A stretch of 64,000 bases of DNA from a phage, in assembly GCA_012112355.1 (NCBI GenBank), contig GCA_012112355.1_3028.1; one strand, given 5' to 3'. The notes beneath the pieces are model-generated. The model worked only from the letters and a program-made list of their open reading frames with translations, made no database searches and was not told where the DNA came from. Both the position numbers and the translations under genes were made by a program. Below are positions 589 to 62,583 of the stretch, piece by piece (positions within the stretch are counted from its first letter, which is position 1; each line of letters opens with the position of its first letter).

Positions 589-688
589 TTTTATTTCCTT
601 TTTTAATTTAATTAACAGTTGGTGCTATGACGATGTATGACCTCATAGCTGGTCAGTGAGATAATTATAATTTATTTATAATAAGCAA
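589..688 (-). promoter_or_regulatory. gene 32 5' leader: A/U-rich UUAAA-repeat translational operator region plus a TATAAATA late-promoter motif (revcomp near 673-680)
   Basis: mRNA-sense sequence upstream of the ATG reads ttaattaaattaaaaaaggaaataaaa-ATG; T4 gp32 autoregulates translation at such a site. Confidence 0.45.
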
Positions 689-5900: not shown

Positions 5901-6827
5901 ACTCGTGCAACGATTATAGAATTCTCTGATGCTACCGGCTCTCATTTCTATTCTCAAAGAGATACGTCAAATAATGTGTTGTTCAACATTTCAGGTACGA
6001 TGCAATCAGTCAACGCTAACGTTCGTGGTGTTCTGAACGTTACAGGTGTCTCAACGTTTAATAGTTCAGTTACAGCCAATGGTGAATTCATTAGCAAGTC
6101 TGCAAATGCTTTCAGAGCAATAAACGGTGATTATGGATTCTTTATCAGGAATGATGGCGGCAGCACATATTTTATGCTTACTGCATCCGGTGATCAGACC
6201 GGTGGATTTAATGGATTACGTCCATTATCAATTAATAATCAATCCGGTCAGATTACAATTGGTGAAGGCTTAATCATTGCCAAAGGTGCTACTATAAATT
6301 CTGGCGGTTTGACTGTTAACTCGAGAATTCGTTCTCAGGGTACTAAAACATCTGATTTATATACCCGTGCGCCAACATCTGATACTGTAGGATTCTGGTC
6401 AATTGATATTAACGATTCAGCCACTTATAACCAGTTCCCAGGTTATTTTAAAATGGTTGAAAAAACTAATGAAGTGACTGGGCTTCCATACTTAGAACGT
6501 GGCGAAGAAGTTAAATCTCCTGGTACATTGACTCAGTTTGGTAATACACTTGATTCGCTTTACCAAGATTGGATTACTTATCCAACGACGCCAGAAGCGC
6601 GTACCACTCGCTGGACCCGTACATGGCAGAAAACTAAAAACTCTTGGTCAAGTTTTGTTCAGGTATTTGACGGAGGTAACCCTCCTCAACCATCTGATAT
6701 TGGCGCTTTACCATCTGATAATGCTACAATGGGGAATCTTACTATTCGTGATTTCTTACGAATTGGTAATGTTCGCATTATTCCTGACCCAGTGAATAAA
6801 ACTGTTAAATTTGAATGGGTTGAATAA
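2955..6827 (+). CDS. 34: long tail fibre proximal subunit gp34
   Basis: 1290 aa (T4 gp34 is 1289); MAEIKRKFRAEDGLDAGGDKIINVALADRTVGTDGVNVDYL N-terminus; repeated ETRRG-IAEIATQ motifs typical of gp34. Confidence 0.9.
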   Translation: MAEIKRKFRAEDGLDAGGDKIINVALADRTVGTDGVNVDYLIQENTVQQYDPTRGYLKDFVIIYDNRFWAAINDIPKPAGAFNSGRWRALRTDANWITVSSGSYQLKSGEAISVNTAAGNDITFTLPSTPIDGDTIVLQDIGGKPGVNQVLIVAPVQSIVNFRGEQVRSVLMTHPKSQLVLIFSNRLWQMYVADYSREAIVVTPANTYQAQSNDFIVRRFTSAAPINIKLPRFANHGDIINFVDLDKLNPLYHTIVTTYDETTSVQEVGTHSIEGRTSIDGFLMFDDNEKLWRLFDGDSKARLRVITTNSNIRPNEEVMVFGANNGTAQTIELQLPTDISVGDTVKISMNYMRKGQTVKIKAAGEDKIASSVQLLQFPKRSEYPPEAEWVTVQELVFNGETNYVPVLQLAYIEDSDGKYWVVQQNVPTVERVDSLNDSTRARLGVIALATQAQANVDLENSPQKELAITPETLANRTATETRRGIARIATTAQVNQNTTFSFADDLIITPKKLNERTATETRRGVAEIATQQETNTGTDDTTIITPKKLQARQGSESLSGIVTFVSTAGATPASSRELNGTNVYNKNTNNLVVSPKALDQYKATPTQQGAVILAVESEVIAGQSQQGWANAVVTPETLHKKTSTDGRIGLIEIATQSEVNTGTDYTRAVTPKTLNDRRATESLSGIAEIATQVEFDAGVDDTRISTPLKIKTRFNSTDRTSVVALSGLVESGTLWDHYTLNILEANETQRGTLRVATQVEAAAGTLDNVLITPKKLLGTKSTEAQEGVIKVATQSETVTGTSANTAVSPKNLKWIVQSEPTWAATTAIRGFVKTSSGSITFVGNDTVGSTQPLESYEKNSYAISPYELNRVLANYLPLKAKAVDSNLLDGLDSSQFIRRDIAQTVNGSLTLTQQTNLSAPLVSSSTATFGGSVSANSTLTISNTGTTSSRFTFEKGPASGSNADSALYVRVWGNKYSGGSDVTRATIIEFSDATGSHFYSQRDTSNNVLFNISGTMQSVNANVRGVLNVTGVSTFNSSVTANGEFISKSANAFRAINGDYGFFIRNDGGSTYFMLTASGDQTGGFNGLRPLSINNQSGQITIGEGLIIAKGATINSGGLTVNSRIRSQGTKTSDLYTRAPTSDTVGFWSIDINDSATYNQFPGYFKMVEKTNEVTGLPYLERGEEVKSPGTLTQFGNTLDSLYQDWITYPTTPEARTTRWTRTWQKTKNSWSSFVQVFDGGNPPQPSDIGALPSDNATMGNLTIRDFLRIGNVRIIPDPVNKTVKFEWVE

Positions 6828-6835
6828 GAGGTATT

Positions 6836-7951
6836 ATGGAAAAATTTATGACAGAGTTTGGACAAGGATATGTCCAAACGCCGTTTTTATCGGAAAGCAA
6901 TTCAGTAAGATATAAAATAAGCATAGCGGGTTCTTGCCCGCTTTCTACAGCAGGACCATACGTTAAATTTCAGGATAATCCTGTAGGAAATCAAACATTT
7001 AGCGCAGGCCTTCATTTAAGAGTTTTTGACCCTTCCACCGGAGCATTAGTTGATAGTAAATCATATGCTTTTTCGACTTCAAATGATACTACATCAGCTG
7101 CCTTTGTTAGTTTCATGAATTCTTTGACGAATAACAGACTTGTTGCTATATTAACTAGTGGAAAGGTTAATTTTCCTCCTGAAGTAGTATCTTGGTTAAG
7201 AACCGCAGGAACGTCTGCCTTTCCATCTGACTCTATATTGTCAAGATTTGACGTATCATATGCTGCTTTTTATACTTCTTCTAAAAGAGCTATCGCATTA
7301 GAGCATGTTAAATTAAGTAATAGAAAAAGCACAGATGATTATCAAACTATTTTAGATGTTGTATTTGACAGTTTAGAAGACGTAGGAGCTACCGGGTTTC
7401 CAAGAAGAACGTATGAAAGTGTTGAGCAATTTATGTCAGCCGTTGGTGGAACTAATAACGAAATTGCGCGTCTACCAACTTCAGCTGCTATAAGTAAATT
7501 ATCTGATTATAATTTAATTCCTGGAGATGTTCTTTATCTTAAAGCCCAGTTATATGCTGATGCTGATTTACTTGCTCTTGGAACTACAAATATATCTATC
7601 CGTTTTTATAATGCATCTAACGGATATATTTCTTCAACACAAGCTGAATTTACTGGGCAAGCTGGGTCATGGGAATTAAAGGAAGATTATGTAGTTGTTC
7701 CAGAAAATGCAGTAGGATTTACGATATATGCACAGAGAACTGCTCAAGCGGGACAAGGCGGTATGCGAAATTTAAGCTTTTCTGAAGTATCAAGAAACGG
7801 CGGCATTTCAAAACCTGCTGAATTTGGCGTCAATGGTATTCGTGTTAATTATATCTGTGAATCTGCTTCACCTCCGGATATAATGGTACTTCCTACACAA
7901 GCATCGTCTAAAACTGGTAAAGTGTTTGGGCAAGAATTTAGAGAAGTATAA
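6836..7951 (+). CDS. 35: long tail fibre hinge connector gp35
   Basis: 371 aa directly after gene 34; size and position of T4 gp35 (372 aa). Confidence 0.8.
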   Translation: MEKFMTEFGQGYVQTPFLSESNSVRYKISIAGSCPLSTAGPYVKFQDNPVGNQTFSAGLHLRVFDPSTGALVDSKSYAFSTSNDTTSAAFVSFMNSLTNNRLVAILTSGKVNFPPEVVSWLRTAGTSAFPSDSILSRFDVSYAAFYTSSKRAIALEHVKLSNRKSTDDYQTILDVVFDSLEDVGATGFPRRTYESVEQFMSAVGGTNNEIARLPTSAAISKLSDYNLIPGDVLYLKAQLYADADLLALGTTNISIRFYNASNGYISSTQAEFTGQAGSWELKEDYVVVPENAVGFTIYAQRTAQAGQGGMRNLSFSEVSRNGGISKPAEFGVNGIRVNYICESASPPDIMVLPTQASSKTGKVFGQEFREV

Positions 7952-7956
7952 ATTGA

Positions 7957-7979
7957 GGGAGCCTTCGGGTTCCCTTTTT
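7957..7979 (+). terminator. stem-loop (gggagcc-ttcg-ggttccc) followed by a T-run after gene 35
   Basis: Inverted repeat with UUCG loop and ctttttc tail immediately 3' of the gene 35 stop. Confidence 0.5.
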
Positions 7980-7982
7980 CTT

Positions 7983-7990
7983 TATAAATA
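7983..7990 (+). promoter_or_regulatory. T4-type late promoter core TATAAATA upstream of gene 36
   Basis: Exact TATAAATA about 24 nt upstream of the gene 36 ATG at 8014. Confidence 0.5.
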
Positions 7991-8013
7991 CTATTAAAAT
8001 AAAGGGGCATACA

Positions 8014-8676
8014 ATGGCTGATTTAAAAGTAGGTTCAACAACCGGAGGCTCTGTCATTTGGCATCAAGGAAATTTTCCATTGAATCCAGCCGGTGACGAT
8101 GTACTCTATAAATCATTTAAAATATATTCAGAATATAATAAACCGCAAGCTGCTGATAACGATTTCGTTTCTAAAGCTAATGGTGGTACTTACGCCGCGA
8201 CTGTTCGATTTAATGGAGGAGTACATGTTCCTACTATAGGTAGTAGTCAACAGTGCGGTGTTTATCCAGGTAACGGTGATGCAGCTACCTTTGCTATGGC
8301 AAATATTGACATCGTTTCGTGGAATGGTATTGGTTTTAAATCATCACAAGGTTCAGCAGACCGAACTGTTGTAATTAATGCACGTAATGGTGATATTAGT
8401 ACAAAAGGCGTTATGACAGCAGTAGGTCAAATAAGAAGTAATGCAGTTGCTCCTGTAGCAGCAAATGACCTTACTCGAAAAGATTATGTTGATGGAGCAA
8501 TAAATACTGTTACGGCAAATGCGGATTCTAGAGTTTTCCGTAAAGGAGACACTATGACTGGAAACTTAACCGCACCAAACTTTTTCTCGCAGAATCCTGC
8601 ATCTCAACCTTCACACGTTCCACGATTTGACCAAATCGTAATTAAGGATTCTGTTCAAGATTTCGGCTATTATTAA
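8014..8676 (+). CDS. 36: long tail fibre distal connector gp36
   Basis: 220 aa (T4 gp36 is 221), MADLKVGSTTGGSVIWHQGNFPLNPAGDDVLYKSFKIY, between genes 35 and 37. Confidence 0.85.
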   Translation: MADLKVGSTTGGSVIWHQGNFPLNPAGDDVLYKSFKIYSEYNKPQAADNDFVSKANGGTYAATVRFNGGVHVPTIGSSQQCGVYPGNGDAATFAMANIDIVSWNGIGFKSSQGSADRTVVINARNGDISTKGVMTAVGQIRSNAVAPVAANDLTRKDYVDGAINTVTANADSRVFRKGDTMTGNLTAPNFFSQNPASQPSHVPRFDQIVIKDSVQDFGYY

Positions 8677-8684
8677 GAGGACTT

Positions 8685-11600
8685 ATGGCTACTTTAAAAC
8701 AAATACAATTTAAAAGAAGCAAAACCGCAGGTGCACGTCCTGCTGCTTCAGTATTAGCCGAAGGTGAATTGGCTATAAACTTAAAAGATAGAACAATTTT
8801 TACTAAAGATGATTCAGGAAATATCATCGATTTAAGCATTTCTACTGGTGGTAATATCAGTGGAAATATAACTCAAACTGGAGATTATTTACAGAACGGT
8901 ACATATAATCTCAATGGAAATCAGTTTGTTTATGCAGGAAAATATATTGAATTTTTACCTAAAACAGCTGGTAATGGTGCGTGGGCAAATCAACACCTAA
9001 ATAAAGCTCCTATCTTTACAGATTTAAGTTCAACTACTTCTGTTTCAGAATACCATCCGCTGATTAAACAACGCTATAAAGATGGAACTTTTTCTGCTGG
9101 TACATTAGTAAACGAAGGTAGTTTTAAATTCCATTATATTGATGAAACCGGGACTTCAAAATACTGGACTTTTAATCGAAACGGTAATTTCATCGTAGAT
9201 TCTGGTAGTATTGAAGTTCGTGCTGGTAATATTTCCGCTTCAGGCAATATTAACTCTGCTAATGGTATTATCACCGGTCCTGAAATTGTTACTAAAAATA
9301 TTAATTTCAGTACAAAAACATTTGTAGCTAATGCTAACATTGGATATGATTGGGTTTCTTTACCTACTTGGGTTTATAACCCACCGGCTGATGGTTCTGA
9401 TAATACTACTAACGGTTTAAACTATTTGCGTAAATTGCGTGCATCAAGTGCATCAAGTATTTTCCATGAAATTGCTGATTGTCGAAAAGGCAAGCCACAA
9501 GAAATTTCTTGGTGGACAGGTGTAGGCCCGGAATCTTTCCAATGGGCGTTTGATACCTCCGGTCGTATTACTGCAGGTAAATCTATTTCGGTAGGTCTTC
9601 CTGATAATGGTACAAATGGACGTTATCCTTTAGATTCTGCGATTTCTATAGGTATTGCAATTGGTGATAACGACACCGGTATTAAATGGGTCCGCGACGG
9701 TGTTATTGATTTCATGGCTAACGGTATTTCATCTGCTACTATTTTGAATAACGGTATTAACAGTACTAAAAAATTGATGGTCGGTTATAGTCGAGATTCC
9801 GGTTCTACTTGGGATTACCCAAATAACAACCAAGCAATGTTTACTGCGCGTACCGATGTTGATGGTAATAATAACGGCGATGGACAGACTCATATCGGTT
9901 ATAGCAGCAATGCCAAGATGTATCACTATTTCCGTGGTACAGGTCGTATGTCCGTTAATATGGGCGATGGACTTCTTGTTGAGCCTGGCATTTTGGATAT
10001 TAAAACTGGTTCAAATTCGTTAAATTTGCGTGCTGATGGTACCATAGCTTCTGTTCAAACGTTAAAACTTAATAATGGATTATATTTTAATGGTGATGGA
10101 ACTAATGCTTCTCTAGTTTTTAAAGCAGCTTCAGGTATTGATGGCACTAAGCAAATCATGTGGGAAGGCGGTACACGAGCAGGTCAGAATAAGAGTTATG
10201 TAACTGTTAAAGCATGGGGTAATTCATTTAACGCATCCGGCGATCGTAATCGTGAAACAGTTTTTGAAGTTAGTGACGGGCAAGGATATTATTTTTATTC
10301 ACAGCGTATGGCTCCAAGTGGCTCTGAAACTACTGGGCCTGTTGTAACCCAGTTCAATGGACAAGTTAATGCTAGAGGAAGTATTATTACTGACGGAAGT
10401 TTTAAAGTTAATGGATTAAGCACTTTAGTCGGTAATGTTACTATGTCTAACGGTTTGTTTGTCCAAGGTGGTTCTTCTATTACTGGACAAGTTAAAATTG
10501 GTGGAACAGCTGATGCATTAAGAATTTGGAATGCTGAATACGGGGCTATTTTCCGTCGTTCTGAAGCGGCATTGCATATTATCCCGACTCCTAAAGATGC
10601 TGGAGAATCAGGTGGAATAAGCAATCTCCGTCCATTAAGTATTAGTCTTAATAATGGTATGGTACAAATGCGCCATTCTGTCACGTTAGGCGATGATGGC
10701 GCTGGCGGTAATATGATTACTGTGGACAATGATAACAAACTTGTTGTTGTTACTAGTCATAGTCGTATTTCTCCTAATTACCGTATGCAGGTAGGACAAG
10801 CAGCTTATATTGATGCTGAATGTACTGACACCGTTCGCCCGGCCGGCGCAGGCTCTTTTGCTTCCCAAAATAATGAAAATGTCCGTGCTCCGTTCTATAT
10901 GAATATTAATAGAACTGATACTAGCACATATGTTCCTATTTTAAAACAGCGATATGTTCAAGGTAACAGCTGTTATTCGTTAGGCACTTTAATTAATGGT
11001 GGTAACTTTAGAGTTCATTATCATGAAGGTGGAGACGGAAGCTCAACAGGCGCAGTTATAAAAGATTTAGGCTGGGAATTTAACAAAAACGGTGATTTTT
11101 ACTCTCCTGGTAAATTAGGTGCTGGTGCGGTTCGTATTGGTACTGACGGTAATATCACGGGCGGTTCATTACCTAACTTTGCTAACTTGAACTTGACATT
11201 AGACCGTAAAGTCAATACCCGAATGGTTTCTTATTCAGGTACTGGCGGTTGGTATAAATTAGCCACTGTAACAATGCCACAATCCACTTCAACCGTCACA
11301 TTCGAAATTGCTGGTGGTAATGGATATAATGTCAACATCCCACACCAATGCGTTACTTCGAAAATCGTTTTAAGAACTTCGAACAATAACCCGAAAGGTA
11401 TTAACGCTGTTGTTTGGTCGATGGATACCGATCAGGGTATTAAGAATGTTGCAACGGTTAATACATCAGGCGATGTTTATGACATCTATGTAAACGTTGG
11501 TACTTATGCTCAGGCGTTAGCAGTTTCTTATTATGCTACTCCTAATGCTACCATTAATCAGATATTTGCAACGGACCAACCGGGTGCAACAGAAACTGCG

Positions 11601-12656
11601 GTTGAACTTCCTGAGACGGCTATTCAAGGACAGGTTGCTAGTGTTCTGAACAACTTGGCTCCTACCCCTAACGGTGTGAAGCGTTATGAAGCCGATTCTG
11701 AAATAGCTATTAATAGCCAAACCGGTATTCGTATCAGAAGCAATGCCGATAAAACTGGTTCTGTGGCTACAATGTTACGAAATGACGGTGGCAGTTTTTA
11801 TATTCTGTTTACAGATAAAAATGCCACCGATGGCGCAGCAACTGTTAATGGTGATTGGAATAGTAAACGTCCTTTCGCAATTAACTTAACAACCGGCGAA
11901 GTGATGATGAATAATGGCATAGCTGTTCGCAGCGCTGCTTTATTCTATAATAGCATAAACGTCAAAGATAATGGTTCTATTAACTTTGATAAATCAGGTG
12001 CTAACCCGAGAAATATGAGAATATTTCATGCTGGCGATGCTTCTCGCGGTAACCGTATTGAAATTGCCGATGAAACTAACTATATTGCTTACTTTGAAAA
12101 AACTCCAGGTGGAGCTAACCGCTTTGTAGTAAATAATGCTACTGTAGCTGGTATTAATCAAACAAATTCATTTGGTATTAATATCAATAACGCACTTGGT
12201 GGAAATAGTATAGCATTTGGTGATAGCGATACTGGTATTAAGCAAAATGGCGATGGATTATTAGACATATATGCGAACAGCGTACAAGTATTCCGTTTCC
12301 AAAACGGTGATTTGTACTCATATAAAAATATAAATGCTCCAAACGTTTATATTCGTTCTGATATTCGCTTAAAATCTAATTTCAAACCTATCGAAAATGC
12401 ACTTGATAAAGTTGAAAAACTCAATGGTGTCATTTATGATAAAGCTGAATACATCGGTGGAGAGGCAATTGAAACTGAAGCGGGTATTGTAGCTCAAACG
12501 TTACAAGACGTTTTACCAGAAGCCGTCCGTGAAACAGAAGACAGCAAGGGTAATAAAATACTCACTGTTTCTTCTCAAGCCCAGATTGCTCTTCTGGTTG
12601 AAGCTGTGAAAACGCTTTCTTCTCGTGTAAAAGAACTTGAATCTAAACTTATGTAA
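8685..12656 (+). CDS. 37: long tail fibre distal subunit gp37, T2/T6-like long form with a C-terminal intramolecular-chaperone-like domain
   Basis: 1323 aa; [46 protein letters not shown] N-terminus as in gp37; internal repeats; C-terminal tail contains SDIRLK...VKELESKLM. Confidence 0.9.
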   Translation: [1323 protein letters not shown]

Positions 12657-12657
12657 A

Positions 12658-12675
12658 AGAGGGCTTCGGCCCTCT
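12658..12675 (+). other. RNA stem-loop with UUCG tetraloop (agagggc-ttcg-gccctct) between genes 37 and 38
   Basis: Perfect inverted repeat in the 30-nt 37-38 intergenic spacer; no T-run, so more likely a stabilising or processing hairpin than a strong terminator. Confidence 0.45.
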
Positions 12676-12686
12676 AAGGATTTTTA

Positions 12687-13472
12687 ATGGCAATTGTAGG
12701 TGTTCCTGGCTGGATTGGTGAATCTGCCGTGAATGAAACTGGACAACGTTGGATGGATGCTGCAATGAGAGCAGTCCGTGTTTCAGTTCCCGGTTGGATG
12801 AGCTCAATGGCCGGACAATCTAAAGAAGTATATTATAGCATTGGTGCTAGTAATTCTTATAATAAAGATACATTAATAAACTGGATAAAAGCCCAAGGCA
12901 GTACTCCTGTTGTTATTACTATTACAGGAAATATTGTTTCTCGATCTACTGGTGTTCCATGCTTAGATTTTCCTAGCTCATTAACTAATGCATACGTGAC
13001 ACTTAATATCAATTCAGGAGTGCATGTTTGGGGCCGTGGCGGGAATGGCGGAAATAACTCTGCCGGTGGAGCAGGAGGAACTGCAATAAATAATGGAATT
13101 GGAACTAGATTGCGTATTAACAACAATGGTGTTATCGCAGGAGGCGGTGGCGGCGGTGGAGGCGGATATTATTCTCCTTTTTCACAAATGAAATTGACTT
13201 TTGGCGGTGGCGGCGGTCGTCCATTTGGTGCTGCTGGCGGGTCTGCTAATATGGAACAGGGCGCTACTGCTGGTACTATTTCTGCACCTGGTAAAGGGTC
13301 TGTCAATGGTATCTATAATGGCGGGAATGGCGGTGATGCTGGTGCCGCAGGTGGTAAATGTAATATTCGTGGGCAAGGATCAGAATATAACGGCGGCGCG
13401 GCCGGTAAAGCTGTTACTGGTAATGCTCCAACTTGGACTAAGGTTGGTACAATATATGGTTCAAGAGTATAA
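12687..13472 (+). CDS. 38: receptor-recognising tail fibre adhesin gp38 (T2-type, glycine-rich)
   Basis: 261 aa, MAIVGVPGWIGESAVNETGQRWMDAAM...; poly-Gly blocks (GGGGGGGGGYY, FGGGGGRPFGAAGG) separating variable segments, as in T2/K3/Ox2 gp38. Confidence 0.85.
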   Translation: MAIVGVPGWIGESAVNETGQRWMDAAMRAVRVSVPGWMSSMAGQSKEVYYSIGASNSYNKDTLINWIKAQGSTPVVITITGNIVSRSTGVPCLDFPSSLTNAYVTLNINSGVHVWGRGGNGGNNSAGGAGGTAINNGIGTRLRINNNGVIAGGGGGGGGGYYSPFSQMKLTFGGGGGRPFGAAGGSANMEQGATAGTISAPGKGSVNGIYNGGNGGDAGAAGGKCNIRGQGSEYNGGAAGKAVTGNAPTWTKVGTIYGSRV

Positions 13473-13504
13473 TTTTTGAATAAATATCCTTAAAAGGAGG
13501 GTCT

Positions 13505-14161
13505 ATGGCAGCACCTAGAATATCATTTTCGCCCTCTGATATTCTATTTGGTGTTCTAGATCGCTTGTTCAAAGATAACGCTACTGGGAAGGTTCTTGCT
13601 TCCCGGGTAGCTGTCGTAATTCTTTTATTTATGATGGCGATTGTTTGGTATAGGGGAGATAGTTTCTTTGAGTACTATAAGCAATCAAAGTATGAAACAT
13701 ACAGTGAAATTATTGAAAAGGAAAGAAATGCACGCTTTGAATCTGTCGCCCTGGAACAACTCCAGATAGTTCATATATCATCTGAGGCAGACTTTAGTGC
13801 GGTGTATTCTTTCCGCCCTAAAAACTTAAACTATTTTGTTGATATTATAGCATACGAAGGAAGATTACCTTCAACAATAACTGAAAAATCACTTGGAGGA
13901 TATCCTGTTGATAAAACTATGGATGAATATATAGTTCATTTAAATGGACGTCATTATTATTCTGACTCAAAATTTGCTTTTTTACCAACTAAAAAGCCTA
14001 CTCCCGAAATAAACTACATGTACAGTTGTCCATATTTTAATTTGGATAATATCTATGCTGGAACGATAACCATGTACTGGTATAGAAATGATCATATAAG
14101 TAATGACCGCCTTGAATCAATATGCGCTCAGGCGGCCAGAATATTAGGAAGGGCTAAATAA
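13505..14161 (+). CDS. t: holin t
   Basis: 218 aa as T4 T; MAAPRISFSPSDILFGVLDRLFKDNATGKVLASRVAVVILLFMMAIVWY with a single N-terminal TM segment and a large periplasmic domain. Confidence 0.9.
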   Translation: MAAPRISFSPSDILFGVLDRLFKDNATGKVLASRVAVVILLFMMAIVWYRGDSFFEYYKQSKYETYSEIIEKERNARFESVALEQLQIVHISSEADFSAVYSFRPKNLNYFVDIIAYEGRLPSTITEKSLGGYPVDKTMDEYIVHLNGRHYYSDSKFAFLPTKKPTPEINYMYSCPYFNLDNIYAGTITMYWYRNDHISNDRLESICAQAARILGRAK

Positions 14162-16243: not shown

Positions 16244-16253
16244 TATTTATTCC

Positions 16254-17166: not shown

Positions 17167-18491
17167 TTGATTTCCTCTAAATCTTTAGTGTATTCTGTAA
17201 CTACATCAGTAGTTTTCCAATATTCGTTTTCTTCTTTTTTAGCTTTAGCTTCTTCAGCAAGTTTCTTTGCTTCATCAGAAGTCATATGAAAAATATTCAT
17301 TCCAACTAGTTTATCAACATAAGAAGAATACATCTCAATTTTAGAAAGTTCTTCGGTCAGTTCTTTACGAGTTTTACCCTGTACAACAATTTCACCTGAA
17401 ATTACTTTCTTAATGAAATGCGCCTTGGCAAAGGCTAAACGAAATGCTGATTCAGTTTCTTTGATTTTGTTATCAATTCGTTTTTGGACATAAGTTTTAC
17501 GAACTTCAACGAAGTCTTTGATTAAATCAACTACGTTATCGTAAACTTGTAGCTTTCCTTTCTCATTAATAACGGTAATATTTTGGGAACGACGCTCAAT
17601 CAACCCGAAGTCTTTCATAATTTTTGCATGGCGTTCTTCTTCATTATCGCTCAAAGAATATTCTTTACGGAATTTAACTTTAAAGCCAAAGCCATGCTCA
17701 CCACAAGCATCATCCCACGTAATGAAGCCTTTATCTTCAAGTGGGTCTAAGATTTTACTCACATAAGTTTCACGATCATACTTATACGGAATCTCAGTGA
17801 TATGCATTTGAGTTCGTGAAGTAAACTTGTATGTTCCACGAATTTCATATTGCCCATCAATCTCAACGACTTCACCACGAAATTCTGGGAATTCTACCTT
17901 CGGTTTAGTTACTTTCTTTCCTTGAAGAGCTTGCAGTACAGCTTTCTTGACAGAAGAAACACTATGAGGAAGAATGTAAGTTGCATAACCAGTTGCAATA
18001 CCGGAAACACCATTAAGAAGAACAGTAGGAATAATAGGCAAATAGAAAGCAGGCGGAATGTGTTCTTTATCTTGATGTACTGGAGCATATTCAGTATCTT
18101 TATATACGTTATAGAAATTTTTACTTACACGAGCAAAAATATAACGACTAGCTGCTGCCTTTTGGACAGTACGAGAACCGAAGTTTCCTTGACCATCTAA
18201 CAAAGGAAAGTTATTATTCCAAGTATTAGCCATCAAAGCCCCTGCATCTTGTGCAGAGTTTTCACCATGGTGATATCCAAGGTCCGCTACACCACCTGCA
18301 ATAGAAGCAAGTTTGTGAAACTTATCTTTATTTCCTCGTGCCAAATCAAGAGCTCGAGCAATAACAAATCGTTGAACTGGCTTAAATCCATCAATCATAT
18401 TTGGAATAGCACGATTTTCAACCGTGTACATAGCATAAGCCAATGCTTCATTATCAATGATACTTTTTAAATCGCGATTATTCAGTTGCAT
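17163..18491 (-). CDS. 52: DNA topoisomerase II medium subunit gp52 (GyrA-like)
   Basis: 442 aa as T4 gp52; MQLNNRDLKSIIDNEALAYAMYTVENRAIPNMIDGFKPVQRFV. Confidence 0.9.
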   Translation of the reverse strand: MQLNNRDLKSIIDNEALAYAMYTVENRAIPNMIDGFKPVQRFVIARALDLARGNKDKFHKLASIAGGVADLGYHHGENSAQDAGALMANTWNNNFPLLDGQGNFGSRTVQKAAASRYIFARVSKNFYNVYKDTEYAPVHQDKEHIPPAFYLPIIPTVLLNGVSGIATGYATYILPHSVSSVKKAVLQALQGKKVTKPKVEFPEFRGEVVEIDGQYEIRGTYKFTSRTQMHITEIPYKYDRETYVSKILDPLEDKGFITWDDACGEHGFGFKVKFRKEYSLSDNEEERHAKIMKDFGLIERRSQNITVINEKGKLQVYDNVVDLIKDFVEVRKTYVQKRIDNKIKETESAFRLAFAKAHFIKKVISGEIVVQGKTRKELTEELSKIEMYSSYVDKLVGMNIFHMTSDEAKKLAEEAKAKKEENEYWKTTDVVTEYTKDLEEIK

Positions 18492-24849: not shown

Positions 24850-24879
24850 ATTATACCACATCCTTGTGGTAAAGTAAAC
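24850..24879 (-). promoter_or_regulatory. T4-type early promoter (GTTTAC, 18 nt, TGG-TATAAT) inside the 3' end of gene 39
   Basis: Minus-strand sense GTTTAC-tttaccacaaggatgtgg-TATAAT. Confidence 0.45.
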
Positions 24880-26699
24880 TACTGGCTCATCCATTCTTTA
24901 CGAAGGTCAGCATTATCTCCCATGAGCATTTCAAAAAGCTCTTTCCAGTTCTCAGGAAGTTTAACAACATCATATACCGGATTTTGAATCATCTCACGAT
25001 ATTCAGATTTTTCCAAAGAGCCAAGTCCCTTAATATAACGGATGCTATGTTTAGGTAGAGCATCTTTAGCACTCTCATATTCAGCGACTGTATAAAACCA
25101 TTCTTGTTTTTTACCGACCTGAGCGATGATTACAGGAGTTTTGACAAAGCGAATTCTTCCTTGCTCAAACAATTCTGGCCAATTACTAAAAAATCCGAGC
25201 AGAGAAGGATAAATGCTTCCTAGACCATCATGGTCAGCATCAGTCATAATAGCGATATTATGATAATTCAAGTTTTCAGCTTTTTCACCGAGAACTAATC
25301 CAGTGATTGCGCAAATATCAAATAGTTCTTTGTTTTTAAGCATATCTGCATAAGACATACCCCAACTGTTGAGAACTTTACCACGTAATGGATAACCACC
25401 ATGAAGTTCTTTATCACGAACATCAATAAGATATCCGATAGCAGAATCACCCTCAGTCAAGAAAAGAGTAGTGTCAGCATCTTTACCGCAAAGATTCGCT
25501 TTGATATGTTTATGAACCTTAGCTTTAGAAGCCTTTTTAGCTGCTTTAGTTTCTGCTGCTTTTTCTGCCGCCAATTTACGAGCCAAAGCAGCTTCGATAA
25601 TCGGCATTAGAATTGCTTCATTATTTAGAATAGCGCGTGAAATCTTTTTAGCATCAAGTTGAATATGACTACGGATTTCACCAAATGGAGAAGTCAAACG
25701 CTCTTTAGTTTGAGAATCAAATCGCATGTTTTTCATATCACGAACAAACATAACGATAGTCAAACATTCTTTGACACGTGCTTTAGTTACATCAATTTTG
25801 AACTTACGTTTGATTTGTGGAATAAGGTCTTCACAAATATCATCCATAACACAGTCAATGTGATGGCCACCATTCTTAGTGTGAATGTTATTGACGTACG
25901 TCAACTGACGAAAACCATCCGGTGAACGACCAACCGCAATAGAACAATTTTCTTGTTCTTGAACAATAGCATGTTCATCATACTGTCGTGCATATTTCTT
26001 AAAATTGCCCTGAACCTTTTTACCATTAAAGGTAAATTGAATATCAGGATAAACAACAGCAAGTGTTTGGAGACGATCTAGTGTAATGTCAAGATAAACT
26101 TGGGACAGCTCATTAGTTTCAAATGACATAAAATCAGGAATGAAAGTAACACGGGTTCCTTTCCATTTTCCAGGAATATCTTCCCATGATTTATTTTCCA
26201 TGCCGTTTGAACAACGAACTACAATATTATTTTGACCATCACCAGTTTCACCGACAAACATCACAGAAAAAATGTTTGTCAAACTAGAACCAACACCATT
26301 CATACCGCCAGTGACGCGTTCTTTATCATCACCGAAGTTACCACCCGCTTTTGGAATAGTCCAAGCAGCAACTGGACCAGGAATTTCTTCACCGGTAGGT
26401 GTTTTAACCATCGCTTGTGGAATACCGCGACCGTTATCTTCAACTGTTACCTGATTATTTTTAATGGTAACATTAATTTTATTCGCGAATTTAAACTTAG
26501 TACGAATACCTTCATCGACTGAGTTATCGATAATTTCATCAATAAGCTTAACAAGACCAGGTACATACTGAACACTTTCCCATTTACCAAACAGAAAGCG
26601 CTCATGCATTTCATTAGCAGAAGAGCCAATGTACATGCCACTACGCTTTTTGATATGTTCAATATCGCTCAGAATTTTAATTTCATTCTTAATCATCAC
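24879..26699 (-). CDS. 39: DNA topoisomerase II large subunit (GyrB-like), single uninterrupted ORF equivalent to T4 genes 39 plus 60
   Basis: 606 aa; MMIKNEIKILSDIEHIKKRSGMYIGSS N-terminus. T4 splits this into gp39 and gp60 with a translational bypass; here it is one continuous ORF. Confidence 0.85.
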   Translation of the reverse strand: MMIKNEIKILSDIEHIKKRSGMYIGSSANEMHERFLFGKWESVQYVPGLVKLIDEIIDNSVDEGIRTKFKFANKINVTIKNNQVTVEDNGRGIPQAMVKTPTGEEIPGPVAAWTIPKAGGNFGDDKERVTGGMNGVGSSLTNIFSVMFVGETGDGQNNIVVRCSNGMENKSWEDIPGKWKGTRVTFIPDFMSFETNELSQVYLDITLDRLQTLAVVYPDIQFTFNGKKVQGNFKKYARQYDEHAIVQEQENCSIAVGRSPDGFRQLTYVNNIHTKNGGHHIDCVMDDICEDLIPQIKRKFKIDVTKARVKECLTIVMFVRDMKNMRFDSQTKERLTSPFGEIRSHIQLDAKKISRAILNNEAILMPIIEAALARKLAAEKAAETKAAKKASKAKVHKHIKANLCGKDADTTLFLTEGDSAIGYLIDVRDKELHGGYPLRGKVLNSWGMSYADMLKNKELFDICAITGLVLGEKAENLNYHNIAIMTDADHDGLGSIYPSLLGFFSNWPELFEQGRIRFVKTPVIIAQVGKKQEWFYTVAEYESAKDALPKHSIRYIKGLGSLEKSEYREMIQNPVYDVVKLPENWKELFEMLMGDNADLRKEWMSQ

Positions 26700-26765
26700 T
26701 TATCCTCGTTTGGTTTCGGGAATATTATACTCCGGTAATCATAAAGCTAAAGGCCCGAAGGCCTT

Positions 26766-27035
26766 TTATTTAAAACGAATAGTTGAATCCTTAAAGAACA
26801 GCCCAGAACATACTGTTCCTTCTACTTTCTGCCCGGTAGGTCCAATAGCACGAAATCCAGTATGTTGGAAATCATTTTCAGAGCAACCGAACCAGTTATA
26901 TCCAGTGATTTCAATATTAGTAAAACCACTTGAAGACAAAACTTTAGTTGCATTATCAGCATCAGTACATCCTACTAAAAACACTGCTAATACTAATGCT
27001 GCGATAGAACGATTAATATATTTCATAATTTTCAC
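26766..27035 (-). CDS. predicted lipoprotein
   Basis: 89 aa; MKIMKYINRSIAALVLAVFLVGC signal peptide with lipobox. Confidence 0.55.
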   Translation of the reverse strand: MKIMKYINRSIAALVLAVFLVGCTDADNATKVLSSSGFTNIEITGYNWFGCSENDFQHTGFRAIGPTGQKVEGTVCSGLFFKDSTIRFK

Positions 27036-27403
27036 TTAAATTTAATGGCTTGAAGAAGACTAATAACTCTCAAGCGGCTTCTTTCATCTTTAACTGTAAA
27101 AGAAAGAGGATCGCCAGATTTCATAGTGATAGTGCATTCAAAATCAAAATCTTCTGTAACTTCTTCGAATAGGTCAAATTCTTCATCATAAATTAGAACA
27201 TTACTCTGAAAACTGTGAAGAATTTTTCCATCATTTCCAGATGCTGTACTAATCATTGTGACATTATTACCTTTCATATCTTCAACGATAAATTCGCTTG
27301 TAGATATTACATTACTAATAGAACCATTCCTATAAATAGCAGAAAATAGATATTTCTTTTCTTCACCTTCGCGAATGCGATATTTCTTACCGATTTTAAA
27401 CAT
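27032..27403 (-). CDS. hypothetical protein
   Basis: Track ORF 27032..27409 appears to begin at a GTG; the first ATG gives ~123 aa. Confidence 0.45.
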   Translation of the reverse strand: MFKIGKKYRIREGEEKKYLFSAIYRNGSISNVISTSEFIVEDMKGNNVTMISTASGNDGKILHSFQSNVLIYDEEFDLFEEVTEDFDFECTITMKSGDPLSFTVKDERSRLRVISLLQAIKFK

Positions 27404-27405
27404 AA

Positions 27406-27582
27406 TCACCCTTTAAGTAAGTCGTAAAATCCACCATTCACATGCTTAGGAGCAGAAGGCCGACGAGTAGACAGACGATGACATTTAGGGCAAACATCAT
27501 TTTCTCGTTCAGAAATCTTTTTAATTTTTTCATATTCATGCCCGCAATCTTCGGATTGGCATTTATAATCATACATTGGCAT
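27406..27582 (-). CDS. small zinc-ribbon protein (~58 aa)
   Basis: Manual translation MPMYDYKCQSEDCGHEYEKIKKISERENDVCPKCHRLSTRRPSAPKHVNGGFYDLLKG; CxxxxC...CPKC pairs. Below track cutoff; coordinates approximate. Confidence 0.45.
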   Translation of the reverse strand: MPMYDYKCQSEDCGHEYEKIKKISERENDVCPKCHRLSTRRPSAPKHVNGGFYDLLKG

Positions 27583-29595: not shown

Positions 29596-30032
29596 TAGCT
29601 TACACGAACATTAATCACTGCGCTGCGAGGAACTACAGAGTACTCTCCAGCATGAACTACGTTCAGAAGTTCAACACCATCTTCAATCCACTGATCAGTC
29701 ACCCATCCACCCACAGGATTCGCGAATGGACGACGAATATAAACTGCCTTACACAGCAGATCAGTTGGATCTTCAGGTTTTTCAATTTCTGTCAATAGAC
29801 TAAAATCTTTTTCATAAATAATAAGCGGTGATACCATTCCATAATAGTTTCTAATTTCAATATACATCATACCGATAAGAATTCCGCTATTAACACTAAT
29901 AACAGTAAAAGGATATCCGCCAGTTAAACCAAGAAGTTCACAAAACTTATTATGAGCTGTATTAGACAGTACCGAAAAATTCTTAATTTCATCAAATTTT
30001 TTCAATTGATAAACAGCATTATTTTTAATCAT
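29595..30032 (-). CDS. paralog 3 of the same family
   Basis: 145 aa; C-terminal WVTDQWIEDGVELLNVVHAGEYSVVPR. Confidence 0.5.
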   Translation of the reverse strand: MIKNNAVYQLKKFDEIKNFSVLSNTAHNKFCELLGLTGGYPFTVISVNSGILIGMMYIEIRNYYGMVSPLIIYEKDFSLLTEIEKPEDPTDLLCKAVYIRRPFANPVGGWVTDQWIEDGVELLNVVHAGEYSVVPRSAVINVRVS

Positions 30033-38238: not shown

Positions 38239-38448
38239 TTAAATTACATGATTATTTATAATAAATTCTCGCGGAACGTTAAAATATCCGATTTTAGTTA
38301 ATATAACAACATCACCGTTAATAATTACCGGAGAATAATCTTCTGGAGTGTTAAATTTCCAATGGGATCTAATATTATATCCATCAGAACCAAATGCTCG
38401 AGTAGCCGGTCTCCCGGCTTTTTGCCACGCGTAGAAATCAAATTTCAT
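38239..38448 (-). CDS. hypothetical small protein
   Basis: 69-aa ORF between gene 56 and soc. Confidence 0.4.
   Translation of the reverse strand: MKFDFYAWQKAGRPATRAFGSDGYNIRSHWKFNTPEDYSPVIINGDVVILTKIGYFNVPREFIINNHVI
38253..38260 (-). promoter_or_regulatory. late promoter TATAAATA for soc
   Basis: Plus-strand tatttata = TATAAATA on the minus strand, about 30 nt upstream of the soc ATG. Confidence 0.5.
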
Positions 38449-38639
38449 TTTGAATGCTCTATAATTAATTTTAAAGCTTCTTCACTGACAAAAATTTCGT
38501 CAGGACCTTCTATAACTTCAACCATACGAAGTTGATTAGTTAAGAGCTCACATACGAGCTCCTTGTTATAATCTTTAAATAGCTGGTCAATACGTTTCTT
38601 ATGGGCTTTCTTAAGCTGACGCTTATTTAAACGAGCCAT
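38445..38639 (-). CDS. hypothetical small basic protein
   Basis: 64-aa ORF with stop/start overlaps on both sides. Confidence 0.4.
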   Translation of the reverse strand: MARLNKRQLKKAHKKRIDQLFKDYNKELVCELLTNQLRMVEVIEGPDEIFVSEEALKLIIEHSK

Positions 38640-39157
38640 TAATAACCTCGGTCTTGACGAGCGAAGTTTTCAGCATTTTTCAGGTAATAAAGTTTAAAGA
38701 TTTCTTCAGCCGACATTCCAAGAGCAATAAATTTATTCATGAAAAAGTGAAATTGGTCAATCAGTTCAAATTTAATTTCAAGCTGATCTTCAGGAGATAA
38801 GTCTTGAATTTTCTTGGATTGCATTTCAGAATAACGTTTCTTCCAAGGTTTCCATACAGCAGAAGCTTCTTTTTCACCATTACTCATACCACCAAGAGAA
38901 GTATATAGCTCGCGAGTTTCGTCTGCGATATAATCGTCTTGGTTTCGCAGCCAAGCAAGAACTTCTCCTGCAGTTTCAAGTGAATCAGGATGACGATTTG
39001 TTTCTGGTTTATCATTAGCCAAACGAATCTGTAAATGCCGCTGCATGTCAAGCATAACCTGCAATGGGTCAATACTGTGCATAATATACTCAGCATATGC
39101 ACGATTTGCTTTATCAACACCTTCGATCAAATGAGCACATTCATTAAAGTGAGCCAT
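38639..39157 (-). CDS. 56: dCTP pyrophosphatase gp56 (MazG-like)
   Basis: Track ORF 38639..39250 is over-extended; from the internal Met (MAHFNECAHLIEGVDKA...LQVMLDMQR...EIFKLYYLKNAENFARQDRGY) ~172 aa, matching T4 gp56. Confidence 0.85.
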   Translation of the reverse strand: MAHFNECAHLIEGVDKANRAYAEYIMHSIDPLQVMLDMQRHLQIRLANDKPETNRHPDSLETAGEVLAWLRNQDDYIADETRELYTSLGGMSNGEKEASAVWKPWKKRYSEMQSKKIQDLSPEDQLEIKFELIDQFHFFMNKFIALGMSAEEIFKLYYLKNAENFARQDRGY

Positions 39158-39228
39158 TATTTTTCCTTTCAATTCATGGGTTAGTAGATTAATTATACAA
39201 TAAATATATAAAGCAATAAGGAGGACAT

Positions 39229-39429
39229 ATGGTACAAAAATTAATGGCACTTGTTAATGCCATAAAAGGTAATAAAAAACGTATAGCTTTTACTATTTCT
39301 GCTATGGTAGGAATTTTACTCTGGAACTTTATTTTATCACCAATTGCAATTGCGCATGGTGTTAATATTCCAGTAGTTACTCTTGATACATTTGTAGATT
39401 TAGCATTTGCTTTAGTTGGGTTGATTTAA
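39229..39429 (+). CDS. hypothetical small membrane protein, the only plus-strand ORF in the minus-strand early region
   Basis: 66 aa, two hydrophobic segments; AAGGAGG seven nt upstream of the ATG; stop overlaps the gene 61 stop on the other strand. Confidence 0.45.
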   Translation: MVQKLMALVNAIKGNKKRIAFTISAMVGILLWNFILSPIAIAHGVNIPVVTLDTFVDLAFALVGLI

Positions 39430-40454
39430 ATCTTAGCATATTTAGATAGCCGCATTTTAGCCATCAACCCCTGGGCAATATTATTTTTCATATATTCCAT
39501 AATTTGTTCAGGGGTTGCACCTTCCTTTCTAATCATATCATTAACATCTTTAGATTTCCAGGGAGATTTATCCCAAAACATAATCCTTTCTCCTGCATCA
39601 ACTAATTTAGTCATTCGTTTGATAGTGTCAGGGTGACGAGGTTCATTATCTAAAACCCACACTCGTCTATCTTTAAATGGAACAACTTCTAGGTCTAATT
39701 GACCACCCGTAATAGCTATACCATTTTCAATAAAAAGTGAATCTATAGGTCCTTCTAGAACATATACATCACCATCTTTAACTCGTTCGACTCCATATAT
39801 TTTTGTTGCCTCAGGATAAGCTTTAATGGTGATATATTTTTGAGGAGCATCTTTCTTTAATGCACGTCCTTGAAAAGACTCAGCTTTTCCATTAGCATTA
39901 TAAATTGGAATAACAAGACGAGGCTCAGAAATTTCCTTTTTGTATGTTCCTGGTGCTATGCTATTAACTAATTTAGGCCATTCGGTTGTAAACCAAAGAT
40001 ATTTCCATTTATCATTTGGAATACAACGAGCTTTTACATATTTTATAATTGGATGGTCTTCCGCCAGTTTATCTAATCTAACACATGACGGAAGAGATTT
40101 AATTATTTTCTTCTCAGGTTGTTTAGGAAGTTCTTTAGGTTTTTCTACTGGACGACTTTTACCTTTTTCTTTTCTTATTTCAAAGATATACTCACGATAT
40201 AAATCGGGTTCAAACTCCTTTAAATATATTCCGATTGGTGCATGATAGTTACAGTTATAACAATGAATATTTCCTTCATTATTATCACCATAATACCATC
40301 CACGAGCTTTATTCTGGTCGGTTTTTGAATCTCCACAAACAGGGCATCTAAACCGCAATTTAAAAGTTGAACTATTATTTACTTGTGTGAATTTAGGTAA
40401 ATGAGTTAATGCACGGTATGCAAACTCATTATCAATCCAAGGTATTGATGACAT
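39426..40454 (-). CDS. 61: DNA primase gp61
   Basis: 342 aa as T4 gp61; N-terminal zinc-binding CPVCGDS...CYNC followed by a TOPRIM region. Confidence 0.9.
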   Translation of the reverse strand: MSSIPWIDNEFAYRALTHLPKFTQVNNSSTFKLRFRCPVCGDSKTDQNKARGWYYGDNNEGNIHCYNCNYHAPIGIYLKEFEPDLYREYIFEIRKEKGKSRPVEKPKELPKQPEKKIIKSLPSCVRLDKLAEDHPIIKYVKARCIPNDKWKYLWFTTEWPKLVNSIAPGTYKKEISEPRLVIPIYNANGKAESFQGRALKKDAPQKYITIKAYPEATKIYGVERVKDGDVYVLEGPIDSLFIENGIAITGGQLDLEVVPFKDRRVWVLDNEPRHPDTIKRMTKLVDAGERIMFWDKSPWKSKDVNDMIRKEGATPEQIMEYMKNNIAQGLMAKMRLSKYAKI

Positions 40455-40456
40455 TT

Positions 40457-40621
40457 TTACTCTTCTTTTTCTTTAGATTCCTCTTTTTTCTTTTTAGGAA
40501 TCTGTTCAGGACCTTTATTTACTACAGCGCCTGACGTTGTTCCAGTAGAGATATTTTCAGGATTACCACCTGAATCTCCAGCGACTATATCTTCTTTGAT
40601 AAATTCTTTATATGTTTTCAT
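40457..40621 (-). CDS. hypothetical small acidic protein (~54 aa), below track cutoff
   Basis: Manual translation MKTYKEFIKEDIVAGDSGGNPENISTGTTSGAVVNKGPEQIPKKKKEESKEKEE; its ATG lies inside repeat copy A. Coordinates approximate. Confidence 0.3.
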   Translation of the reverse strand: MKTYKEFIKEDIVAGDSGGNPENISTGTTSGAVVNKGPEQIPKKKKEESKEKEE

Positions 40622-40667
40622 ATTAACCTCTATTCATAAAAGCATTAAAAATTTGGTCATCAATAGA
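40619..40667 (-). repeat. direct repeat copy A (~49 bp) spanning a stop/start junction
   Basis: catattaa(c)ctctattcataaaagcattaaaaatttggtcatcaataga; one mismatch against the copy at 40977-41025. Confidence 0.6.
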
Positions 40668-40979
40668 TGGCGCAGTAATATTTTCTGCATCATTTAGCAA
40701 ATCATTAATTTCATCAGATAGCATAACACATGTACCTTTATTTCCTGTAATTGTTACTGCACAATTACGAACGTTTTCTTTATCAAATTTTAGGTTAATA
40801 TTTTCGTAGTGAAAATCCTTTAATGCCGAATATATCTTTAAAATGAAATTGTCTTTTACTACAATAAACCCAACCTCACTATTAAAACGCGGTTCATGGA
40901 AACTGTAATAAACCTTTTCATCTATGAAATCGTATGAAATTTTTTCCATTTTTAAATATGAAAATTCAGAACTATACAT
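40623..40979 (-). CDS. hypothetical protein (61.1-like position), paralog of the next ORF
   Basis: 118 aa; ends SIDDQIFNAFMNRG; has one VVKDN-FILKIY unit. Confidence 0.5.
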   Translation of the reverse strand: MYSSEFSYLKMEKISYDFIDEKVYYSFHEPRFNSEVGFIVVKDNFILKIYSALKDFHYENINLKFDKENVRNCAVTITGNKGTCVMLSDEINDLLNDAENITAPSIDDQIFNAFMNRG

Positions 40980-41025
40980 ATTAATCTCTATTCATAAAAG
41001 CATTAAAAATTTGGTCATCAATAGA
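40977..41025 (-). repeat. direct repeat copy B (~49 bp)
   Basis: catattaa(t)ctctattcataaaagcattaaaaatttggtcatcaataga; encodes the last 14 codons of the 210-aa ORF plus TAATATG. Confidence 0.6.
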
Positions 41026-41613
41026 AACATTTACTTTAGGCTGTTCTTCAAACGGTAATTCATATCCACATATTACAATTTTGTGATCGATACCAAAATA
41101 CACAGAAGCAATATTATTAATATTATTTTCAGTGAAATCTAAATCAACATCAATATCTTTTTGACTAACGCTCAAAGGATAATTAATACGAATAATTCGA
41201 TTATCTTTAACAAAGATTCCACCGACATACTCTGTGCTGCGTTTAAAGTTTACACGTTTCCTAAATGAAAAATATTCAGGTTCTTTATGGGCTCGACTCA
41301 TAGGGCTTAAAGTGTATTCCGAATATGAAATATCAAATCCTACACCTTCAATATGAGCCAAAGTGTCATGATTAAACCAATTATAATCGTATGCCAAATC
41401 CATTAAATTGTAATATGTGAAAGGCACCGGATTAACATCATATGTTGTACCTTTAAAATCTGCCCAGGCAACGATTTCGTTATCTTTAACAATTACAAAA
41501 ATTGTGCCAATAAGATATCCACGGTTATTTTCATCAGGCGTTATATTATAACATTGTGCATCAGGAAATTTACCGTATTTAAACGGTGGATTTTTGTGCA
41601 TATAATAAATCAT
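40981..41613 (-). CDS. hypothetical protein (61.2-like position)
   Basis: 210 aa; two VKDN-containing units (FVIVKDNEIVAW, GIFVKDNRIIRINY); ends SIDDQIFNAFMNRD. Confidence 0.5.
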   Translation of the reverse strand: MIYYMHKNPPFKYGKFPDAQCYNITPDENNRGYLIGTIFVIVKDNEIVAWADFKGTTYDVNPVPFTYYNLMDLAYDYNWFNHDTLAHIEGVGFDISYSEYTLSPMSRAHKEPEYFSFRKRVNFKRSTEYVGGIFVKDNRIIRINYPLSVSQKDIDVDLDFTENNINNIASVYFGIDHKIVICGYELPFEEQPKVNVSIDDQIFNAFMNRD

Positions 41614-62289: not shown

Positions 62290-62425
62290 GATCGCAAATC
62301 ATGCGTTTATGTAACTTGAGTATAATATAGCAAACTTCAAAACTATTTACATGAGTAACACGAACAGCATTACCATTAATGAGATAATACTGTCCCTTTT
62401 TAATTTCTTTATCAACCACAACCAT
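62243..62425 (-). CDS. hypothetical small protein
   Basis: 60-aa ORF with an early-type promoter upstream. Confidence 0.4.
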   Translation of the reverse strand: MVVVDKEIKKGQYYLINGNAVRVTHVNSFEVCYIILKLHKRMICDRAAFSSVAKEIKLHG

Positions 62426-62455
62426 ATCAATTCCTCAAAGGTAATTCATGTGTTA

Positions 62456-62485
62456 ATAATACCACAGTTTGAGCTCGTTGTAAAC
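62456..62485 (-). promoter_or_regulatory. T4-type early promoter (GTTTAC, 18 nt, TGTGG-TATTAT)
   Basis: Minus-strand sense GTTTAC-aacgagctcaaactgtgg-TATTAT. Confidence 0.45.
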
Positions 62486-62583
62486 AACTTTGTGAAAATT
62501 ATTTTAGGGAATGATAAGAAGGGAACGATAGCTTAGAATGGTAATATACAGAATGTAAGAAAGAAAGGCCCAGAGGGCCCGTC

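Follow-up and report, generated by a model that had tools for sequence, protein, structure and literature searches.

The DNA analysed here (the window) is a stretch of 64,000 nucleotides from a phage and represents a Tequatrovirus (T4-like) segment, whose interval 38600–40500 is 98–98.6% identical to many Escherichia/Shigella T-even phages. Gene identities were referred to an annotated relative, UFV-AREG1, which displays 98.4% identity. An open reading frame encoding 66 amino acids (the small ORF) lies on the plus strand between genes 56 and 61, as the first-pass annotation had placed it, and it diverges from the former and converges with the latter (Table 1). The small ORF and gene 61 have in common a TTAA tetranucleotide at 39426–39429, which contains the stop codons of both. 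The strong Shine-Dalgarno sequence ascribed to the small ORF is present, and a late-promoter-type motif is located further upstream on the same strand. On the opposite strand, an element resembling a middle promoter precedes gene 56 and a terminator-like hairpin falls within the 5' part of the small ORF.

Table 1 Position of the small ORF, its flanking genes and the associated sequence elements in the window.
Feature	Position	Strand	Details
Gene t	13505–14161	+	ORF call on the window
Late motif of soc	38260..38253	-	31 nt before the soc ATG
Gene 56 (dCTPase)	38639–39157	-	Divergent from the small ORF; identity via UFV-AREG1 annotation
Middle-promoter-like element, gene 56	39192–39218	-	MotA box TATTGCTTTA (39218..39209), 11-nt spacer, -10 TATAAT (39197..39192)
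Late-promoter-type motif AATAAATA	39199–39206	+	A(-13) variant of TATAAATA
Shine-Dalgarno AAGGAGG	39218–39224	+	4 nt 5' of the small-ORF ATG
Small ORF, CDS for a 66-aa small membrane protein	39229–39429	+	ATG start, TAA stop; PHROG 2024 member; protein MVQKLMALVNAIKGNKKRIAFTISTMVGILLWNFILSPVAIAHGVNIPVVTLDTFVDLAFALVGLI
Terminator-like hairpin ATGGCATTAACAAGTGCCAT plus TAATTTTTGT (T-run)	39234–39263	-	Inside codons 2–12 of the small ORF
Gene 61 (DNA primase)	39426–40454	-	Convergent with the small ORF; identity via UFV-AREG1 annotation

The description of the small ORF as a lone plus-strand gene in a minus-strand region is borne out by UFV-AREG1, where it is the sole plus-strand CDS among the 75 extending from rIIA to nrdG. 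A crude, greedy ORF call on the window returned genes 34–38 and t (2955–14161) on the plus strand and, afterwards, the small ORF. The other plus-strand candidates after gene t, 26629–27039 and 62351–62536, each overlap minus-strand ORFs and were set aside as antisense artefacts. In the case of 26629–27039 (136 aa), probably such an artefact, the overlapped minus-strand frame is an 89-aa GTG-start ORF at 26766–27035 with a lipoprotein-type signal (…LAVFLVGC…), positioned just past the 5' end of the topoisomerase large-subunit gene (24879–26699, minus strand). On the primase side of the locus, downstream of 61.1, adjacent minus-strand ORFs of 118 and 210 aa (40623–41613) end in the same C-terminal sequence, SIDDQIFNAFMNR(G/D), which may reflect partial duplication, or a module shared by the two, in the 61.2 region.

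The small ORF was recovered by tblastn in 693 phage records, in 687 of which at least 80% of it is covered in one piece. Its place and its orientation, convergent with the primase gene, are kept in Tequatrovirus, including T2, T4 and T6; the latter are the relatives in which the first-pass annotation proposed to look for conservation, and the same frame, position and strand are found in all three. Synteny is also kept in six other Tevenvirinae genera, with representatives in Mosigvirus (ST0 and RB69, where the gene is RB69ORF029w), Gaprivervirus (DK-13), Gelderlandvirus (S16, gp16.1), Kanagawavirus (CIP9) and Moonvirus (NM4.3), as well as in two metagenomic T4-like contigs. The TTAA stop-to-stop overlap with gene 61 is retained in most genera; in DK-13 a homing endonuclease gene (L006 2872–3621) is inserted between the small ORF and the primase gene. 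The upstream neighbour varies, being gene 56, dam (T4), a hypothetical gene (T2 and fPS-65) or a MazG-like gene (CIP9 and NM4.3). In T4, segF and dam are found on the far side of the small ORF from the primase gene. The interval separating gene 56 from gene 61 is a hot spot for insertions, and the small ORF has been retained every time.

The most distant members of the family share 26–29% identity and still measure 58–69 aa; their DNA is no longer alignable, yet the frame persists. Residues W32, P38 and G44 are invariant, and N33, P48 and the acidic position 53 are nearly so. Nei-Gojobori dN/dS values range from 0.06 to 0.45 overall, with 0.06–0.3 within Tequatrovirus and 0.1–0.45 between genera, where dS is saturated (dS > 1) and the frame is nevertheless open. 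The variable alignment columns are distributed over codon positions 1, 2 and 3 as 45, 21 and 56, revealing a third-position excess. Profile comparison assigned the small protein to PHROG 2024 (E = 1.5e-31, residues 2–66 against positions 1–65 of the 65 in the profile), and all 13 diverse members examined (13/13) match this PHROG and no other. The small ORF is therefore a real, conserved T-even gene under purifying selection on its protein, and the proviso "if real" with which it had been introduced can be dropped, as the frame remains open and constrained by purifying selection even among genera with saturated synonymous sites.

PHROG 2024, which includes RB69ORF029w and S16 gp16.1, is labelled "unknown function". 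The small ORF is a "hypothetical protein" in most of the GenBank records that carry it, which number in the hundreds, and one UniProt entry, for the OE5505 orthologue, bears the label "Holin". The T2 and T6 records name the small ORF "putative head morphogenesis protein" and gene 56 "ferredoxin", both plainly mis-assigned. In T4 the gene is located at NC_000866 17738–17938 on the plus strand; NC_000866.4 and AF158101.6 leave the 310 bp that separate dam from 61 without any feature. Because the T4 reference lacks the annotation, RB69ORF029w was classed among the novel ORFs, those with no equivalent in T4 (Nolan et al. 2006). Thus, the small gene is already catalogued as an ORF and the T4 reference is the exception, which amounts to a modest annotation gap. 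A full-text literature search found the small ORF mentioned nowhere outside a supplementary table, and the literature search returned no TSS, RNA-seq, Ribo-seq or proteomic datum for it.

The region upstream of the small ORF had been described as loosely resembling a late-promoter core. The resemblance is closer than that, AATAAATA being an exact match at eight of eight positions to the documented A(-13) variant, and a counterpart of the motif is found upstream of the gene in every lineage. Among 50 listed T4 late promoters, TATAAATA is present in 32 and A occupies position -13 in nine (Geiduschek and Kassavetis 2010). Similarly, T4-like phages often carry A or T at -13, the motif being placed at -13 to -6 (Nolan et al. 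2006). AATAAATA can serve as the -13 to -6 element of a T4 late unit, which requires no -35 element; with this placement, transcription is predicted to start near 39212, leaving a leader of approximately 17 nt. The motif is also carried upstream of the small ORF by T2, T6, RB69 and contigs L025 and L026. Across all lineages ATAAATA, or ATTAAATA in two genera, is found 15–23 nt 5' of the ATG; in the close loci ATAAATA stands 16–23 nt before the ATG in 20 of 20 cases, within at least four unrelated upstream contexts. CIP9 displays a perfect TATAAATA, and S16 and NM4.3 display ATTAAATA. TTAAATA alternates with ATAAATA as the conserved motif, the TAAATA core being present in all lineages. Between genera only the motif and the Shine-Dalgarno sequence are kept in the upstream regions, and a GGAG(G) core precedes the ATG in every relative examined.

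ATAAATA occurs 12 times in the window against 37.9 +/- 6.1 times in shuffled sequences, an approximately three-fold depletion, and TATAAATA occurs five times against 10.3 expected; this depletion fits selection against stray late promoters. Five of the 12 ATAAATA copies are positioned 19–35 nt 5' of an ATG, belonging to gp34, gp36, t, soc and the small ORF. The first four of these are classical late genes. Orphan copies, with no ORF start downstream, were observed at 673–680 (-), 8499–8506 (+), 13085–13092 (+), 13626–13633 (-), 16244–16251 (-) and 29813–29820 (+). A further orphan, at 27331–27338 (+), is a perfect TATAAATA lying antisense inside the minus-strand ORF 27032–27409.

No sigma-70-like promoter was found on the plus strand upstream of the small ORF, and there is no plus-strand gene that could act as a source of read-through within more than 25 kb upstream. 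In T4, all early and middle transcripts run counter-clockwise (Geiduschek and Kassavetis 2010). Most lineages lack the canonical T at -13 and have A, G or C there, so the promoter may be weak, and an HMM search called no late promoter upstream of RB69ORF029w (Nolan et al. 2006). A T4 dRNA-seq preprint (bioRxiv 10.1101/2024.04.04.588121) reports 150 T4 TSSs, of which 22 are antisense. The small ORF almost certainly constitutes a transcription unit by itself and, judging from the promoter motif and its surroundings, late, gp55-dependent transcription is probable.

The minus strand contributes its own signals to the locus. In Yersinia phage fPS-65 the hairpin within the small ORF carries a terminator annotation; it is restricted to Tequatrovirus, Mosigvirus and Gaprivervirus being without it. 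It is likely to represent the 3' end of gene 61 transcripts, which, since the hairpin occupies codons 2–12, would probably cover most of the small ORF in antisense. The element facing gene 56 combines a perfect MotA box with TATAAT, the documented consensus being (a/t)(a/t)(a/t)TGCTTtA at 12 +/- 1 bp from TAtaaT (Hinton 2010), and is presumably the gene 56 promoter, as predicted from its sequence. The plus-strand late motif is embedded in the spacer between this MotA box and its -10 element, and the Shine-Dalgarno sequence of the small ORF abuts the MotA box. Gene 56 and the small ORF are thereby separated by back-to-back, partly nested putative promoters of differing temporal classes. No intrinsic terminator was found on the plus strand within 3 kb after the small ORF, so transcription starting at the late motif would proceed into gene 61 in antisense. 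The antisense relationship to the gene 61 transcript that had been proposed for the small ORF follows from geometry: a transcript of the small ORF must be complementary to the 3'-terminal part of the gene 61 transcript, the small ORF being situated within the gene 61 3' UTR up to the hairpin (39263..39234). An Rfam scan of 38900–39800 gave only a sub-threshold chance match to a miRNA.

The small protein is dominated by a single strong transmembrane segment at approximately residues 19–42. Hydropathy gives one strong segment of this kind in every lineage, with the best 19-residue Kyte-Doolittle window scoring 1.8–2.6. A single transmembrane segment, 21–41, was similarly predicted by TMHMM for RB69ORF029w (Nolan et al. 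2006). In all lineages five to seven Lys/Arg residues are positioned N-terminal to the transmembrane segment and none or one C-terminal to it, and because of this excess the N-terminus should be cytoplasmic. An AF2 model computed from an 18-sequence alignment (mean pLDDT 76) places helices at residues 2–14, 16–42 and 52–63. The C-terminal segment (52–63) is hydrophobic enough for a second transmembrane helix in Tequatrovirus and Mosigvirus but too short or weak in the distant members. Of the "two-helix" membrane protein initially described, the strong segment at about 19–42 thus stands, while the helix at 52–63 is not clearly membrane-spanning; its topology is ambiguous, and we read it as a periplasmic-side helix that lies at the membrane interface or binds a partner. 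Scans of Pfam and NCBIfam gave no link to a characterised protein, and neither a sequence profile search of the PDB nor a Foldseek comparison of the AF2 model with BFVD returned a characterised relative. A profile search of a 5.8-billion-protein set and a HMMER profile scan of 1.84 billion representatives recovered family members only, all from T4-like phages.

RB69ORF029w, S16 gp16.1 and PHROG 2024 resemble the small ORF in position, plus-strand orientation, overlap with the primase stop codon and single predicted transmembrane segment, and nothing substantive separates them: the small ORF is their orthologue. T4 soc (small outer capsid protein), a late gene approximately 1 kb away, offers a parallel: it too is short, is embedded in the early block and has a TATAAATA-type motif and a Shine-Dalgarno sequence to itself. 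In contrast, soc shares the minus strand with the early genes and specifies a soluble capsid decoration protein, whereas the small ORF, on the plus strand, specifies a membrane protein and uses the A(-13) variant. That variant is shared with the holin gene t, where it stands 19 nt before the ATG in the window together with a strong Shine-Dalgarno sequence. Holin T has an established N-in topology and is made late; the small protein would resemble it in both respects. However, T measures 218 aa, carries a large periplasmic domain, is encoded in the late tail-fibre cluster and shows no sequence or family similarity to the small protein. Small class II holins and pinholins (for example, phage 21 S68) are comparable in their length of 60–70 aa, in their hydrophobic helices and in probable late expression. 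They differ in that the small protein is charged at the N-terminus and lacks a charged C-terminal tail, its second helix is too short or weak in distant members, and it has neither a family match nor a lysis cassette. The T4 Imm and Sp proteins, encoded a few kb away in the 61–43 region, are likewise small envelope-targeted accessory proteins, but they are products of early minus-strand superinfection-exclusion genes, whereas the small ORF is on the opposite strand behind a late-type promoter and has no known homology to them.

The small protein evolves faster than its neighbours, with identities of 26–55% vs 62–77% for gp61 and gp56. Two records carry lesions in the gene. In T4_583L (MZ375356, L027 520–820), a 151.8-kb T4 derivative, a 2-nt deletion shifts the frame after approximately codon 22 and a 4-nt deletion is found between the Shine-Dalgarno sequence and the ATG, giving two lesions in one small gene; a look-up of the literature and of the accession found no paper describing this clone. 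In the T6 record (AP018814, L029 4229–4429) ATT replaces ATG and the annotated CDS begins at Met6. The T4_583L frameshift and the T6 ATT start could be sequencing errors; if real, they would mean that laboratory growth does not require the small gene, a typical property of T4 accessory genes.

That the frame might be accidental and untranslated, its conservation stemming from minus-strand signals such as the 3' UTR and terminator of gene 61 or the promoter of 56 or dam, is extremely unlikely. The hairpin and the MotA-type promoter do overlap the 5' end and upstream region of the ORF, and the AT-rich window does contain random plus-strand ORFs of similar size opposite real genes. However, dN/dS and the third-position excess are those of a translated frame, length and frame outlast any alignable DNA down to 26% identity, Mosigvirus and Gaprivervirus keep the protein where the hairpin is missing, the Shine-Dalgarno sequence is conserved everywhere, and in DK-13 the ORF persists beside a homing endonuclease gene. 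As conservation holds across varied neighbours, with these dN/dS values and this codon-position pattern, the open frame is not a by-product of minus-strand signals. The locus might instead act mainly through its RNA or promoter, occluding the MotA promoter of 56 (dam in T4) and helping to shut off primase and early messages by antisense transcription, with the peptide secondary. The late motif in the spacer of the minus-strand MotA/-10 element, the 3 kb devoid of a plus-strand intrinsic terminator, the tail-to-tail overlap with gene 61 in most genera and the transcription of both T4 strands at different times at several sites (Geiduschek and Kassavetis 2010) are compatible with such interference. 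Purifying selection on amino acids, with the invariant Trp, Pro and Gly, shows nonetheless that the protein itself is selected, the DK-13 endonuclease gene lying between the ORF and gene 61 makes direct overlap unnecessary, and the nested arrangement is not general, as the upstream neighbour and promoter differ by lineage. Since selection acts on the protein while the arrangement varies, antisense transcription or interference is not the main cause of the conservation of the locus, and this explanation appears very improbable.

Two further possibilities accept the gene as real and concern its timing and function. Expression outside the late class, from an unrecognised early or middle plus-strand promoter or by read-through only, would accord with the missing T(-13) in most lineages and with the silence of the HMM late-promoter search in RB69, but T4 early and middle transcripts are all counter-clockwise, the upstream region offers neither a plus-strand sigma-70-like promoter nor, for more than 25 kb, a plus-strand gene, and the TAAATA core stands at a constant spacing before the ATG in every lineage, with the perfect consensus in CIP9; we regard it as unlikely. 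A role as holin or other direct lysis effector, following the UniProt label, is suggested by the small size of the protein, its probable late promoter and the combination of AATAAATA and strong Shine-Dalgarno sequence seen at gene t. This role is improbable, as the label on the OE5505 orthologue is unsupported and looks like automatic annotation. No Pfam or NCBIfam holin family was matched by 13–18 members at E <= 1–10, and none by the window protein at E <= 10, a single stray match of one member to GTA_holin_3TM (E = 0.1) being the only hit of this kind. Moreover, the C-terminus is hydrophobic (…AFALVGLI) and without a charged tail, the charged segment is N-terminal, and the flanking genes encode a dCTPase and a primase, with no endolysin or spanin neighbour. 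T4-type phages also already own a characterised lysis set, consisting of t, e, pseT.3/pseT.2, rI and rIII.

The reading preferred here, which we consider likely, is that the small ORF forms its own late transcription unit and encodes an envelope protein with an accessory late role, antisense read-through being a by-product. Late in infection, gp55-programmed RNA polymerase would start from AATAAATA at about 39212 and transcribe a one-gene unit on the clockwise strand. The leader of some 17 nt, with its strong Shine-Dalgarno sequence, would direct translation of the 66-residue protein, which is predicted to insert in the inner membrane with its Lys/Arg-rich amphipathic N-terminal helix remaining in the cytoplasm. 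Residues 19–42, approximately, would cross the membrane, in the part of the protein that holds the invariant W32, P38 and G44, and the short hydrophobic, acidic C-terminal helix may reside at or in the periplasmic face. The protein would then act as a non-essential envelope accessory factor of the late phase, possibly in lysis timing, envelope integrity or membrane-associated assembly. The unterminated late transcript would enter the primase gene 61 in antisense, as a by-product.

A more far-reaching version of this reading, in which the small ORF is an overlooked late gene in T4 and all enterobacterial relatives, lacking from the T4 reference annotation and from SwissProt-derived names, and combines a specific envelope function with a strand-switching role that helps to turn off 56/dam and 61, is unlikely. 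If true, the envelope function might be, for example, lysis-inhibition signalling, holin control or membrane-bound prohead initiation, and a promoter nested in a MotA middle promoter and firing at the primase gene would help to shut off 56/dam and 61 at late onset.

T4 is the reference organism of its phage group and its annotation has been propagated widely. As the gene, conserved in at least eight Tevenvirinae genera, is absent from NC_000866 and AF158101, any T4 study that assigns its reads or peptides to annotated genes will miss it. A CDS at 17738–17938 (+) should be added to the T4 annotation, and existing strand-specific datasets could be re-read with it; the small ORF would be the sole clockwise gene in the first ~75 kb of the T4 map. 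Uncharacterised small accessory proteins are common in large phages, and in this respect the find is useful and unsurprising. The locus also offers a clean natural example of a probable late promoter directed against the flow of early and middle transcription.
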